Position numbers and translations under genes: made by a program. From Clostridia bacterium (GTDB taxonomy: Bacteria; Bacillota; Clostridia; TANB77; CAG-508), in NCBI GenBank assembly GCA_045593405.1, contig JAZNWN010000015.1:8395-72394 (forward strand): a stretch of DNA of 64,000 bases, in the 5' to 3' direction. Under the pieces are notes generated by a model. That model saw only the letters and a program-made list of their open reading frames with translations, searched no databases and was not told the origin of the DNA. Shown here one piece after another: positions 2,995-57,180 of this stretch; the stretch's first letter is position 1; every line of letters starts with the position of its first letter.

Positions 2995-3113
2995 TTTTAA
3001 ATATTATTACGCAAGTGGCTTCATTGACCATTTTTGAAATTTTCTAAAACCTTTCATTTTCAATTATTTCAAATGTTTTTTAGTACTTACTGAATGCAAT
3101 TTGAATGCTACTA
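2995..3113. repeat. lysS 3'-end/flank duplicate (copy 3)
   Basis: CGCAAGTGGCTTCATTG is the reverse complement of the lysS last codons (M K P L A). It is followed by the ACCATTTTTG...AAAACCTTTCATTT segment and the GAATGCAATTTGAATGCTAC motif. Confidence 0.65.
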
Positions 3114-3144
3114 GATTGAATTCATTAATACTCATTAGAATTTA

Positions 3145-3549
3145 TTAATTATTATTTTTTATACTATTAAATTTTCTTTTTAGTATTTTATAATATATTA
3201 TTTTATAGATAATAGCTAGCACATAGATTGGCAAGCCCATTATTATTAATACTACACCCTCTAGTCCACCAATATTACCTAAAGCAAATATTACATCTAT
3301 TAAAAAATATATAACTAAAATATCCATTATGTACGTAATATATAAAAACCAATTTGCAATACTTGTAGAAATTTTTAAACCATCTTTTTTTCTAAAATAA
3401 AGTATGTATGTAAATTGATATATACATGAAAGTATAAATACTAAAAATATAATATCTGCCCATGCTCTTGCTGTTATATATGGTCTTGCTATTAAAACTA
3501 ATAAATAATTAATAAAAGATATTTTATTAATCAAATCATATTTACTCAT
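3145..3549 (-). CDS. hypothetical polytopic membrane protein
   Basis: The 134-aa ORF has about four transmembrane segments. An AGGAG RBS lies upstream. The gene sits inside the lysS-flank repeat array. Confidence 0.5.
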   Translation of the reverse strand: MSKYDLINKISFINYLLVLIARPYITARAWADIIFLVFILSCIYQFTYILYFRKKDGLKISTSIANWFLYITYIMDILVIYFLIDVIFALGNIGGLEGVVLIIMGLPIYVLAIIYKIIYYKILKRKFNSIKNNN

Positions 3550-3600
3550 ATTTTTCTCCTATTTTTGAATGCTACCAATATAAATTTCATGAAAGCTTAT

Positions 3601-3807
3601 TAACTTTTTACTATTTGTTAAATTATTGGACAATTACTCACTCTTCTTTATCTAAGTGTTTTACAAGCTTTTACTCATTATTTAATTTTATAAAATGTTC
3701 TCACGCAAGTGGCTTCATTGACCATTTTTGCATTTCTCTAAAACCTTTCATTTCCAATAGTTTTAAGTACTTTCCAGTGCTCTGTGAATGCAATTTGAAT
3801 GCTACCA
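3601..3807. repeat. lysS 3'-end/flank duplicate (copy 2)
   Basis: About 120 nt are colinear with 5211-5337 (TAACTTTTT...TTATAAAATGTTCTCACGCAAGTGGCTTCATTG). The ACCATTTTTG segment and GAATGCAATTTGAATGCTACCA motif follow. Confidence 0.7.
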
Positions 3808-3845
3808 AATTGTTTTCATTAAGAGTTATTATAACATATAAATTT

Positions 3846-5132
3846 TTATAATTCCATTTCACTATCTATCTGTTTATCTAATTCATATAATTCTTGAAAA
3901 GCACTTCCATTTATATCATTTCTATTTCTTACAACTGGTATACTTAAATGCATAAAACTATCTGCTTCTCCTGGATAGCTTTTTATACTACCCATTGGAT
4001 AATGTTGTAACAATCTTCTAAAAGTTAGAAACAATCTTTCTGTTTTTATTTCACTTATTAAATCTTCTTTTCCGAAACTTCTTTCAAAATAATATTTTTC
4101 TCTTTTATATTGTTCTGGATATTTTGTTATTTTATCTTCAGTCCAATACTCTTCAAATTCTGATAATATTTTTTTATTTCTTTTTGTATGATATTCATAA
4201 TCAAGAACATATAAGCTTGGAACTTCTATTTCAGTAACACCTTCTTTGTGTAATAAGTTAACAAATATGCTTAATGCTAATAAATTTTTAGGTTCGACTT
4301 GATAGGTATCTTCATCTGCTATTCCTTCATTTGCCTTATACTTTTTTCTATCCATTTTTTTATCTAGTTCAGTTTTGTTATAACTATCACTTTTATCTTG
4401 AATTGAACCTATAGAGCAGATTTTTTTACCATCTTTTTCATAAATTCCATATCTTATAACAGGAAAATCATAATGTGGTCTATTAAACAATTCTTTATTA
4501 TCGTAATAATTTTTATCATAAACTTTAATTTCAATTTCACTTGAATTCTCATCCCAAGTTCTTGCTATACCATTTTTCACACAAAGTACGTTATTATCTA
4601 AAAACTCTATCTGACCTAACCAAGTTTCTTCATTGTATTTTTCAAATGTAGTATCATTTACCATCTCTACTTGTTTTCTCAAAAATTCTTCCGGATTATT
4701 AAAATCATCCGGTGTAGCCCTTAACCATATTTGTTCAAAGAAATTATTTTTTTCATATCTAGTAAATCCTGACATTCCTGTTCTTGAAAAGTACAACTCT
4801 ATTTGTTTTTCATAGAGCTGTCTTAGCAGCTCAAAGAACTGTCTGTAATCATTTACTATCATAACAGGAGTTTCAAGATTTCCTTCACTTTTTTGTTTTA
4901 TTGTTTGCAATATTTTTTGAGATTTTTCTTTATAAAAATCATATTTATCAGAATAGCTTTTTAAAATGCTTTCTATGAATTGTATTGCTTCATCTTCTCT
5001 AAAGTCAAATTTAAAGTTCGGTAAATCTTCACTAAACAATAACTTATACAATGTATCTGTTGTAAATTCTCTTGCTACATTTTCAAAAGTTGGCATCCAA
5101 CTTTCTGCCACCGTTCCTTTATATGCTTCCAT
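3846..5132 (-). CDS. hypothetical protein (428 aa, no recognisable domain)
   Basis: A long, clean ORF with host-like codon usage. It is bracketed by duplicated copies of the lysS 3' flank. Confidence 0.6.
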   Translation of the reverse strand: MEAYKGTVAESWMPTFENVAREFTTDTLYKLLFSEDLPNFKFDFREDEAIQFIESILKSYSDKYDFYKEKSQKILQTIKQKSEGNLETPVMIVNDYRQFFELLRQLYEKQIELYFSRTGMSGFTRYEKNNFFEQIWLRATPDDFNNPEEFLRKQVEMVNDTTFEKYNEETWLGQIEFLDNNVLCVKNGIARTWDENSSEIEIKVYDKNYYDNKELFNRPHYDFPVIRYGIYEKDGKKICSIGSIQDKSDSYNKTELDKKMDRKKYKANEGIADEDTYQVEPKNLLALSIFVNLLHKEGVTEIEVPSLYVLDYEYHTKRNKKILSEFEEYWTEDKITKYPEQYKREKYYFERSFGKEDLISEIKTERLFLTFRRLLQHYPMGSIKSYPGEADSFMHLSIPVVRNRNDINGSAFQELYELDKQIDSEMEL

Positions 5133-5315
5133 ACTTACTCCTATTTTATTAGTATTTCCATTTATTAAATGAATGCAATTTGAATGCTACCAGCTAAATT
5201 TTATTAAAATTCATTAACTTTTTGTATATTTGTCAAATTTTTTAATAATGTCTCATTCATTACTATTTGAGCGCTTTGCAAGCTTTTATGCTTTGTTAAA
5301 ATTTATAAAATGTTC

Positions 5316-6809
5316 TCACGCAAGTGGCTTCATTGTTGGGAAGAATAATATGTCCCTAATTGAAGCGCTATCTGTTAATAGCATTATTAATCTATCTAGA
5401 CCTATTCCCAATCCTCCTGTTGGTGGCATACCATATTCTAATGCTCTAACAAAATCGTCGTCCATATCATTTGCTTCTTCATTTCCAGCTGCTTTTTGTT
5501 TTGCTTGTTCTAAAAATCTTTCATATTGATCTATTGGGTCATTTAATTCTGAATATGCATTTCCATATTCACGTCCACCAATAAACACTTCAAATCTTTC
5601 TACTAGTCTTGGGTCTGATGGTTTTCTTTTTGTTAATGGTGATACTTCTACTGGATAATCTATTATAAATGTTGGTTGAACCAATGTTTCTTCTACTTTT
5701 TCTTCAAAAACAAGATTTATTACATTTCCTCTTTCTAATGTTCCTTCTATTTCTATTCCTAAATTTCTAGCTGCATCAGACGCTTCTTCGTCTGTATTAA
5801 TTTCGTTAAAATCTACTCCTGTTACTTCTTTAATAGCATCTATCATAGGAAGTCTTCTCCATCCTGGTGTTAAATCAATTGGTGTTCCTTGATATGTAAT
5901 TTTAGTTGTTCCCAAAACTTTCTGTGCTACTGTTGATATTATTTCTTCTGTAATATCCATCATATCGTTATAATCTTCATATGCTGCATATAATTCTATG
6001 TTTGTAAATTCCGGATTATGTTTTATAGATATTCCTTCATTTCTAAACATTCTTCCTAATTCATAAACTTTATCAAATCCACCAACTATTAATCTTTTTA
6101 GGTATAATTCGTTTGCTATTCTTAAATACATGTCCATATCTAATGTGTTGTGGTGTGTTATAAAAGGTCTTGCTGCTGCCCCACCTGCTATTGTATTTAA
6201 TATTGGTGTTTCTACTTCAACATATCCTTTATTATCTAATACATTTTTTATTTCTTTTATAATTTTACTTCTAATAAGAAATGTATCTTTTACTTCTGGA
6301 TTCATTATTAAATCTACATATCTTTGTCTATATCTTAATTCTGTATCTTTTAATCCATGGAATTTTTCTGGTAATGGTCTCAAAGATTTTGTAAGTAATA
6401 CCATTTCTTTTGCATGAACTGATATTTCTCCAGTCTTTGTTTTAAATACAAATCCTGTTATTCCTACTATATCTCCAATATCATATGTTTTAAATTCTTT
6501 ATAGCTTTCTTCTCCTAAATCATTTAAACTTACATAACTTTGAATTTTTCCTTGCATATCTTGTAAATGGCAGAAAGATGCTTTTCCCATTACTCTTTTT
6601 GCCATAATTCTTCCTGCTATTGTTACATCTTTTCCTTCTAATTCTTCATAGTTATCTTTTATTTGCTGGCTATTATGTGTTCTATTATATTTTGTAATTT
6701 TGAAAGGATCTTTTCCTTGTTTTCGTAATTCCTCCAATTTTTCTTTTCTTATTGTTATTAAATGATTTTCATCTAACATTTGTTCATTGTTGTTATTATT
6801 TTGTTCCAT
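5316..6809 (-). CDS. lysS: lysine--tRNA ligase (class II)
   Basis: The 497-aa protein carries the [15 protein letters not shown] class II motif 3 and an N-terminal OB anticodon-binding domain. Confidence 0.97.
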
Positions 6810-6895: not shown

Positions 6896-6924
6896 TTGTA
6901 GGGCGCAATCATGCGCCCCTACAA
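6896..6924. repeat. REP-like GC-rich palindromic element
   Basis: TTGTAGGGCGCA-ATCAT-GCGCCCCTACAA. Confidence 0.75.
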
Positions 6925-7883: not shown

Positions 7884-8816
7884 TTATATTGTTTGAATTT
7901 CTTTCATTAAATTTTTATATTTTATATAAAATACATCTGAATCCTTTTCGTCTAATGAGTTTGCAAGTTCATTTAATAATACATATATTTTATTTGTTTT
8001 TTCTGTTTTGTCTTTTATATAATCTATATCACTAATTATTTCAGAATATACTTGTACTGCTTGAGTCAAATTATCATCTATTTCACCATTTTCTATATCT
8101 TCAGCTAATATATATGCATTTATTATATGACTTTGTGTTTGTCTTAATTTCTGCATATTTTTATCTGCATTTATTTCTTCTAGAAATTCTGGTATATTTG
8201 AATACAAATCTGCAAGTAAAATTAAACTTTGACTTTTATCTTCATTTTTTATGGCAATCATGGATCTATTAAGTTTATTACTAAAGTCTAATATTATGTC
8301 ATTTTTCACATCTAAAGCATATAAGTCTAGTATAATTATAGCCCAACTTTCTTCTAGTAATTCTATATCTTTTTTTATCCCAGTCCAATCTATATCGTTT
8401 CTATCTTTATCAAGTTCTGCATCAATTACCATTGTAGTTGTATTTACTGCATCTGTACTCTCTCCCTCTTGTTCTTGTTTTTCTCCTGCTTCTTTTGTAT
8501 CGCTTGATCCACCGCTTCCTCCTTCACTTGAATTTCCACCTTGTCCATTTGAAGTTTGGCTTCCTTCCCCAGCTTGCGATTGTTGTCCTTCATCACTTAA
8601 TTTCACTTGTTGTGATATAACTGAATAATTTTCAAAAGATATATTGTTTAATCCATTTAACAATTCCAAAGTTTCTACATTTATATAATCTAACTCTGAA
8701 ATCACTTTTGTTTTTAACTCTTCATCTTTATTTTCTGTGCATCCTGTAAAGAAAAATAATGTACAAATCAAAATAATCAAAATTACTATTTTTTTGTATT
8801 TTTTCAAGAAAATCAC
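7884..8816 (-). CDS. lipoprotein with Gly/Ser/Glu-rich low-complexity linker
   Basis: A signal peptide is followed by the lipobox LFFFTGC. The central region is GSQTSNGQGGNSSEGGSGGSS. Confidence 0.6.
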   Translation of the reverse strand: MIFLKKYKKIVILIILICTLFFFTGCTENKDEELKTKVISELDYINVETLELLNGLNNISFENYSVISQQVKLSDEGQQSQAGEGSQTSNGQGGNSSEGGSGGSSDTKEAGEKQEQEGESTDAVNTTTMVIDAELDKDRNDIDWTGIKKDIELLEESWAIIILDLYALDVKNDIILDFSNKLNRSMIAIKNEDKSQSLILLADLYSNIPEFLEEINADKNMQKLRQTQSHIINAYILAEDIENGEIDDNLTQAVQVYSEIISDIDYIKDKTEKTNKIYVLLNELANSLDEKDSDVFYIKYKNLMKEIQTI

Positions 8817-57115: not shown

Positions 57116-57180
57116 GTAGGGGCGCATGATTGCGCCCTTGGAAAAAATGTGATTCCGGGCGCAATCATGCGCCCCTACAA
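57116..57180. repeat. REP-like element pair
   Basis: AGTAGGGGCGCA-TGAT-TGCGCCC, and later CCGGGCGCA-ATCAT-GCGCCCCTACAA. Confidence 0.75.

Follow-up and report, generated by a model that had tools for sequence, protein, structure and literature searches.

We analysed a 64,000-nt stretch of DNA (hereafter the window) from a Clostridia bacterium of an uncultured, low-GC gut lineage (GTDB TANB77; CAG-508), corresponding to positions 8,395–72,394 of the forward strand of contig JAZNWN010000015.1 in assembly GCA_045593405.1. In this window the 3′ end of lysS, the gene for lysyl-tRNA synthetase, is followed by an array of short repeats and single genes. We propose that the array, at 3009–5335, probably consists of two integrative elements that lack an integrase, resemble cis-mobilizable elements (CIMEs) and stand in tandem at the lysS 3′ end, the integrase being needed in trans.

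The last codons of lysS form an 18-nt core (CGCAAGTGGCTTCATTG on the + strand, CAATGAAGCCACTTGCGT on the gene strand), which is present in three exact copies at 5318–5335, 3703–3720 and 3009–3026. The + strand form was matched exactly at 5319–5335, 3704–3720 and 3010–3026. No fourth copy was found in the window with up to two mismatches allowed, and shuffled sequence gave an expectation of 0. A 23-nt motif (TGAATGCAATTTGAATGCTACCA on the + strand, TGGTAGCATTCAAATTGCATTCA on the gene strand) occurs exactly at 5170–5192 and 3785–3807, with one mismatch at 3091–3113, and as a half motif (TTTGAATGCTACCA) at 3564–3577; the window holds no further copy and none is expected by chance. The cores and motifs lie within longer direct repeats, 3564–3720 aligning with 5179–5335 (157 nt, 73% identity) and 2999–3155 with 3693–3849 (157 nt, 80% identity). 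The repeat periods, 1,615 and 694 nt, equal an element plus a core. The first-pass annotation of this DNA, which was made from the letters alone, had listed these repeats, and all of them are present exactly or a few bases from where it had placed them; they also align pairwise, and a failure to do so would by its own terms have refuted it.

All genes of the region are on the minus strand. Along the gene strand, lysS (5316–6809; 497 aa, from the open reading frame (ORF) list) ends with core copy 1 (5318–5335), the attL core. Then follow the left arm of element 1 (5170–5317; a 125-nt spacer and the motif at 5170–5192; alignments and nhmmer, E = 9e-43), its cargo, a gene (3846–5132) whose 428-aa product belongs to an uncharacterised family and has a domain of GNAT-like fold, and its right arm (3721–3845; nhmmer E = 7e-32), which is composed of a conserved block, the motif at 3785–3807 and a 64-nt spacer at 3721–3784. 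Core copy 2 (3703–3720, exact) has the right arm of one element on its left and the left arm of the other on its right, and thus forms an attP-like junction between them. The left arm of element 2 (3564–3702; nhmmer E = 1e-29) has a 125-nt spacer and the half motif, which is truncated beside the ribosome-binding site (RBS) of the cargo gene, and is the arm that is 73% identical to 5179–5335. The cargo is a 134-aa hydrophobic orphan (3145–3549, ORF list). The right arm (3027–3144, nhmmer), with the conserved block, the motif with one mismatch and the 64-nt spacer, is 80% identical to that of element 1, and core copy 3 (exact) with a TAA stop (3006–3026) forms attR. Element 1 thus spans 3721–5317 (1,597 bp) and element 2 spans 3027–3702 (676 bp), with one gene each. 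Beyond core 3 come an RBS, a gene for a 149-aa membrane protein (2528–2977), an M50-family peptidase gene (1762–2505; Pfam Peptidase_M50), which is the conserved chromosomal neighbour on the far side of the hotspot, and then tsaD.

This order of attL, attP-like junction and attR is the pattern expected from two elements that integrated at the same site one after the other. From the sequence pattern, the present TGA stop of lysS and everything downstream of it would be the left arm of element 1, and core 3 with its TAA would be the displaced original lysS end with chromosomal sequence beyond it. The sequence after the third core runs into the TAA and the RBS of the 149-aa gene and diverges from both left arms, and therefore only two genes are bracketed. 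The earlier claim that the lysS end was triplicated together with its downstream flank stands for the core, which is present in three copies; the downstream flank is present in only two. Likewise, of the three genes that had been described as framed like cassettes, only the 428-aa and 134-aa genes lie between repeats, and the 149-aa gene is outside the last one.

The repeat search gave no inverted repeat pairing the element ends, such as a transposon or a miniature inverted-repeat transposable element (MITE) would have; the boundaries are direct repeats of the end of the target gene. Each element is a single ORF, and no match to integrase, relaxase, coupling-protein or VirB4 families was obtained from Pfam, PADLOC or PHROG. 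The window elements, with one cargo ORF apiece, therefore have neither the integrase nor the conjugation or mobilisation genes that define an integrative and conjugative element (ICE) or an integrative and mobilizable element (IME).

For comparison we retrieved 80 species-level loci with LysS (denoted below by L numbers), all from metagenome-assembled genomes of uncultured gut Clostridia; their LysS proteins are 70–89% identical to that of the window. The arms were detected with nhmmer profiles, one for each arm. Arms of the same kind were observed around unrelated cargo in L003, L080, L083, L047, L050, L012 and L070. Genes flanked by the 23-nt motif in its exact form are a 125-aa membrane gene in L080, where LysS is only 70% identical, a 140-aa gene in L083, and homologues of the 428-aa gene in L003, L081, L082 and L093. 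Diverged arms were detected by nhmmer in L047 (781-aa cargo), L012 (HipA-like), L050 (a 140-aa protein and Fic), L063 and L070. The right arm of L080 is 85% identical to that of element 2, compared to 74% for lysS DNA over the aligned stretch. Tandem arrays of like logic are present in the independent assemblies L003, L050 and L063. The array in L003 has two cassettes, the first with a variant motif of GCTGTAA repeats and the second with GCATTCA repeats; it carries the homologue of the 428-aa gene and, in another cassette, genes for a YhcG nuclease and a SLOG protein.

The ends of lysS in these loci indicate how the elements were inserted. The active lysS of L003 ends with MKPLS* and runs into arm sequence, and its attR, ATGAAACCAAACAATTAA (MKPNN*), is the natural lysS end of L002, a sister species with an empty site. 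Remnants of displaced ends were also observed in L080 and L083 (MKPLA*) and, behind a different one-gene insert, in L001 (MKLLQ*). In every case the sequence left of C(A/T)ATGAA goes with the left partner and that right of ATGAA(A/G)CC with the right partner, and this split places the strand exchange inside the ~10-nt C(A/T)ATGAA(A/G)CC. Serial site-specific insertion at the lysS 3′ end, which had been suggested from the window sequence, is thus supported by the order of the att-like sites, the sharing of arms by unrelated cargo and the displaced lysS ends. In L001, the closest relative (LysS 89%), the active and displaced lysS ends enclose a DUF3841 gene that runs on the opposite strand (11491–12400); this insert has no recognisable arms.

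The cassettes are more alike between species than the conserved housekeeping genes that adjoin them, which argues for horizontal transfer. At the nucleotide level, the 428-aa gene is 84% identical between the window and L094, where lysS is 72% and tsaD 69% identical; between the window and L003 the whole cassette, including its non-coding arms, is 91% identical, compared to 86% for lysS and 73% for the M50 gene. From these identities the cassettes appear to have moved between species. In L082 (reverse strand, ~780–920), the motif comes after a 5′ fragment of the 428-aa gene and has a 184-aa gene directly behind it, an arrangement which suggests exchange or rearrangement of cargo at the motif.

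An attP-like site of ~250 bp results when right arm, core and left arm are joined, and each of its arms has two GCATTCA direct repeats with a period of 11 nt. The distance between motif and core is exactly 64 nt in all eight right arms in which both could be located; it is kept in L003 despite a different spacer sequence, and also in the arm of the GCTGTAA type. In left arms the distance from core to motif is 125 nt in five, 126 nt in L080, 115 nt in L081 and 134 nt in two arms of conjugative-type elements. Pairwise identity is 97–98% in the motif and 72–80% in the adjacent spacers. There are at least three variants of the motif, based on GCATTCA, GCTGTAA and, in L047, GCATT(A/G). The start codon of the cargo is 14–56 nt from the motif in five cassettes, and the cargo stop is 31–112 nt before the right motif in these; the start of the 149-aa gene is 113 nt away.

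This layout resembles that of a lambda-type attP, in which the arm-type integrase sites lie on both arms and are phased to the crossover site; those of phage lambda itself were reportedly described by Ross and Landy in 1982 (a reference listed in PMC4111918). The resemblance extends to the size of ~250 bp, to a short core shared with attB (here the lysS end) and to repeated non-core motifs at fixed distances on both arms, the GCATTCA pairs being 64 and 125 nt from the core and conserved across species. The differences are that both arms here have one direct-repeat pair in the same orientation, that no cognate integrase was identified in this analysis, and that the site is known here as a sequence pattern only.

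At the junction in the window (3693–3727), the core lies between the halves of an imperfect inverted repeat, AAATGGTC ... GAACATTT; GAACATT is also found after the lysS stop in the arms of L032, L057, L045, L050 and L063. The inverted repeat could represent core-type recombinase sites, for which its 19-nt gap is long.

Taken as a mechanism, these patterns would be explained as follows. A tyrosine integrase recognising the conserved end of lysS would have inserted the elements by strand exchange inside C(A/T)ATGAA(A/G)CC, each inserted element supplying a replacement lysS end; the empty attB would then be the lysS core followed by AATAATATTTAAAATATAAGGAG. The motif may serve as an arm-type site to which the integrase, or an excisionase, binds. 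The integrase would come in trans from an ICE that uses the same lysS site, and, by analogy with CIMEs, the cassettes would move when such an ICE integrates alongside and the composite excises and is transferred. Both cassettes of the window are probably stranded at present.

We then looked at the interval between lysS and the M50 gene, statistics being taken over the 61 of the 80 loci that have an M50 gene downstream of lysS. The gap varies from 20 nt to 7.5 kb among these species. Seven species have gaps of 20–76 nt, which are too short for the arms and represent empty sites, and 42 of the 61 have an insert of more than 400 nt. The gaps contain 114 ORFs, 87% of them co-directional with lysS, which fall into ~80 unrelated clusters; Pfam assigned Fic (14 ORFs), HipA_C (5), HD (5), SLOG, YhcG nuclease and others, and no integrase was among the families listed. 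In L001, L002, L003 and L083 the M50 gene directly follows attR or lysS. This variability of gap and cargo means that the window array is one state of a variable hotspot and not a fixed duplication. A variable accessory hotspot had been predicted, with a comparison across relatives as its check, and the comparison agrees with the prediction.

Several other arrangements were seen at the same position. In L026 (11444–11700), the lysS 3′ end with ~98 nt is present in three tandem copies with no gene between them, which resembles the gene-less microCIMEs of streptococci. In L034, L036, L043, L068 and L062 the lysS frame continues for ~150–220 codons past the usual MKP end, which would be a C-terminal extension of LysS exactly at the hotspot position. 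A small conserved ORF, MKEE(L/M)SDFLK.AY.Y..VKD.KEAFEEYP..., lies just after lysS in L024 (2991–3245) and L094 (7827–7967); that of L024 reads through into a pseudo-lysS end, ...SMKPLA*.

Conjugative-type elements were observed at the same site. A homologous left arm follows lysS in L032 (contig CAOSZT010000001.1; also in L084 and L085) and in L057 (CAKNIZ010000001.1), with nhmmer E values of 1e-29 and 3e-20, respectively. These arms have, at the equivalent position, the variant motif GTAGCTGTAAAAT(T/A)GC(A/T)GTAA, which also flanks cassette 1 of L003. Behind the left arm L032 and L084 encode ParA, ParB, a SpaA-type adhesin, PrgI, a VirB4-type ATPase, a sortase and a CHAP hydrolase, and L057, whose locus ends sooner, encodes ParA, ParB and a SpaA adhesin; the M50 gene is not within 10 kb in either L032 or L057. 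We consider these elements to be ICEs, or decayed ones, at the same lysS site with arms of the same kind. The L032 element was extended by look-up of an identical VirB4 protein, and 20 kb were read. After the CHAP gene this walk met chromosomal-looking genes, with no right arm and no integrase within the 20 kb; a homologue search identified the last gene of the locus as a widespread chromosomal gene.

The integrase was searched for in several ways. None of the 20 window ORFs of 277–435 aa is a tyrosine recombinase by Pfam, and tblastn of all loci with two tyrosine integrases gave none beside lysS; the only match, in L036, lies ~8 kb upstream of lysS and was judged unrelated. A left-arm-like sequence in L014 is accompanied by metabolic genes, and this locus was not taken as an ICE. 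Relatives of the VirB4 protein at 88–91% identity belong to ICEs at other sites, one type of which has a tyrosine integrase 4 kb after VirB4; in a related ICE family at another site, a 317-aa integrase (Phage_int_SAM_3 + Phage_integrase) is located at the right end. When viral contigs were scanned for the motif, for its variant and for two arm patterns, the scans gave either nothing or chance matches that the arm profiles rejected, and plasmid and phage collections had no real match to the junction DNA or the 428-aa protein. The signature of a diversity-generating retroelement, a reverse transcriptase beside a bAvd-like gene, is present in L096 and L097 (18017–19870), on an ICE that has a VirB4 of the same family and is inserted at another site.

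A number of observations weigh against the CIME-like interpretation. None of the right arms had an integrase beside it, and for ICEs inserted at lysS the right end was not recovered. The L032/L084 element has no relaxase or coupling protein over the 20 kb that were read, and since chromosomal-looking genes follow, it may be a decayed element. ICEs with a motif of the GCATTCA form were not found, both conjugative-type elements having the GCTGTAA variant. The window cassettes contain no remnants of ICE genes, and hence their origin by deletion from an ICE is not demonstrated. The 428-aa gene is also found after lysS without recognisable arms, in L094, L064 and L052. Finally, the comparison sequences are metagenome assemblies throughout.

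The alternatives differ in what they make of the arms. The motif, whose repeat the first-pass annotation had written as GAATGC-N5-GAATGC and taken as a possible shared promoter or operator, might act mainly as an operator or promoter for co-regulation of the accessory genes, the repeats being regulatory modules. It does lie 14–113 nt upstream of three gene starts, direct repeats at an 11-nt period are also typical of operators, and a conserved hexamer resembling TTGACA/TTGATA lies ~45 nt upstream of the left motif. However, the motif is downstream of each cargo gene too, its fixed distance is to the recombination core while that to start codons varies (14–56 nt in five cassettes), and a variant occurs in the conjugative-type attL arm, where the next real gene is hundreds of bases off. 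A promoter scan gave 26 promoter-like sites, against 22.5 ± 4.8 in shuffles, and 0 terminators, and enrichment for either was rejected. Since distances to start codons vary and promoter-like sites are not in excess, a regulatory role is the weaker reading, and we consider it quite unlikely to be the main one. The presence of the motif on both sides of the cargo, its fixed distance to the core, its extra conservation and its variant in the conjugative attL favour a recombinase site, and on this sequence pattern it would better fit an arm-type binding site than a promoter or operator. If the region downstream of lysS had instead been duplicated locally and had undergone homologous recombination, with genes added by illegitimate recombination, no site-specific recombinase would be needed at all. 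Direct repeats could in principle come from unequal crossing-over, and the three gene-less tandem copies of the lysS end with 98 nt in L026 would suit this idea. It is nevertheless very improbable: the right arm is absent at empty sites with gaps of 20–76 nt and therefore cannot be a duplicated native flank, the same arms occur at 70% LysS identity and are more alike than the flanking genes, displaced and active lysS ends differ exactly to the right of ATGAA(A/G)CC, and all eight right arms measured keep the 64-nt spacing exactly. We give hardly any credence to an assembly artefact, in which reads from alternative cassettes at one site were collapsed or chained. The relatives are uncultured and repeats of 150 nt can mislead short-read assemblers, but tandem arrays with the same logic occur in the independent assemblies named above, and left and right arms, which are only 73% and 80% identical, are too different for chaining.

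In a dedicated capture system comparable to integrons, single-gene cassettes, each having a ~250-bp attP, would be an evolved class and not decayed ICEs, and they would be inserted and excised singly by a recombinase whose gene is elsewhere, on the chromosome or another element. The very regular packaging of unrelated cargo between the motifs, the lack of ICE gene remnants in the cassettes and the co-directionality of most gap ORFs with lysS are in keeping with it, and the occurrence of at least three motif variants suggests co-evolving specificities. On the other hand, no recombinase gene adjoins lysS in any of the 80 loci, the arms are common to conjugative-type elements, the junction has no integron attC-like fold, and the literature already has CIMEs of 1.2 kb and microCIMEs without genes (PMC7563491). 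We regard such a system as unlikely, and are similarly doubtful of the broader proposal that the lysS end in this clade is an integron-like capture platform working on lambda-type att sites, with minimal cassettes having phased arm repeats as a self-standing class of hitch-hikers. If it were true, integrases in trans would insert, excise and exchange cassettes singly, with arm-motif specificities for GCATTCA, GCTGTAA and GCATT(A/G); new genes would be loaded between two motif copies; and a fast-turnover pool of orphan, toxin-like and membrane genes would be common to gut species.

Among known systems, the best match for the window elements appears, by analogy, to be the CIME. CIMEs are flanked by att sites, lack recombination and conjugation genes, often occur in tandem at the 3′ ends of housekeeping genes and undergo accretion with an ICE; those of streptococci flank ICESt1 and ICESt3, with sites at rpsI, rpmG, fda and tRNA-Lys, and measure 1.2–13 kb, with gene-less microCIMEs of 130–220 bp (PMC7563491). 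The window elements are alike in having att direct repeats at the 3′ end of a housekeeping gene, in carrying cargo without integrase, relaxase, coupling-protein or VirB4 genes, and in their tandem arrangement. Their att sites comprise the three exact 18-nt cores and a left arm homologous to the conjugative-type arms of L032 and L057. They differ in that the host belongs to uncultured low-GC gut Clostridia and not to streptococci, that the array is CIME + CIME with no ICE or IME partner, that the cassettes are uniformly single-gene with tightly packed arms, and that the 676-bp element (measured between cores) is smaller than the cargo-carrying CIMEs described. Streptococcal ICEs with tyrosine integrases also target the 3′ end of lysS, giving direct repeats of 13–17 bp at or near its last bases (PMC4701971). 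Here the same gene and position are targeted and the lysS reading frame is likewise preserved, whereas the window elements have no conjugation or recombination genes, and the elements of L032 and L057 represent a gut Clostridia family with ParA, ParB, SpaA, PrgI, VirB4, sortase and CHAP. The kind of hitch-hiking element and the lysS 3′-end insertion site are therefore already known, and the array extends the knowledge of streptococcal CIMEs and of ICEs targeting lysS without a new principle. What is new is the host lineage, the very small, uniformly single-gene, packed cassettes, and the sharply defined, exactly spaced arm motif with at least three variants.

The cassettes also share with those of integrons that they are serial, co-oriented, promoter-less and mostly single-gene units of diverse, mostly unknown function whose recombinase is not self-encoded. 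Unlike in integrons, there is no intI, attI or Pc platform here, the insertion point in the window is inside the end of an essential gene, and the recombination site is ~250 bp long with arms. An attC-like fold of the 291-nt junction was rejected (−19.8 kcal/mol, compared to −20.5 kcal/mol for shuffled sequence; z = 0.2). The integron analogy fails because there is no such fold and no adjacent integrase. In tycheposon and tRNA-gene island arrays, tandem cargo-only units with partial copies of the target end between them lie beside elements that encode tyrosine recombinases. In the window the target is a protein-coding gene, and host and recombinase family differ from those arrays.

In a large group of uncultured gut Clostridia, integration has a major hotspot at the lysS–M50 junction, and the genes there differ almost every time. 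Elements of this kind can be reduced to one gene and keep a complete-looking attachment site, and arm profiles can delimit small mobile elements that integrase-based island finders overlook. Orphan genes, small membrane proteins and toxins of the Fic and HipA types could spread between species by this route. The conserved 23-nt motif, together with the exact spacing, defines a predicted DNA-binding specificity of a candidate integrase or excisionase.

The proteins of the region were also searched against Pfam. An ERCC4 nuclease label for the 428-aa protein was rejected; the match, at E = 0.0096 only, is below the Pfam cut-off and the fold search did not support it. The 134-aa protein has no family match and no homologue in the 80 related loci. 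In a hydropathy scan it has hydrophobic stretches at residues 24–52 and 64–120; its kinship with the 125-aa membrane cargo of L080 was considered and rejected on comparison. For the 149-aa protein the hydropathy scan gave hydrophobic N- and C-terminal stretches and a transmembrane–soluble–transmembrane layout. It has no family match and no homologue in the 80 loci, and the DUF3592 resemblance proposed earlier was not recovered, Pfam giving no DUF3592 match at E ≤ 0.01. The nhmmer search gave no arm matches between 2400 and 3000, around the 149-aa gene; lying beyond the last core and without arms, it is an accessory gene and not a bounded cassette. Exact-protein look-ups of the LysS, 428-aa and 149-aa proteins of the window matched nothing on record.

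The spacer between the M50 gene and tsaD (1573–1765, 190 nt) is richer in GC (~36%) and contains a long imperfect hairpin (−51.2 kcal/mol, z = −3.9). The spacer has no Rfam match, and an RNA family anywhere between 1500 and 7000 was rejected, Rfam giving no match there at E ≤ 1; the hairpin may be that of a structured RNA or of a palindromic element inserted there. The window has three copies of a GC-rich palindrome, GTAGGGGCGCATGATTGCGCCCTAC (6898–6922, 57116–57140 and 57154–57178; 0 expected), which looks like a dispersed element resembling repetitive extragenic palindromic (REP) sequences. A similar sequence was observed after the M50 gene in L001, whose tsaD ORF is split into parts of 204 and 143 aa.

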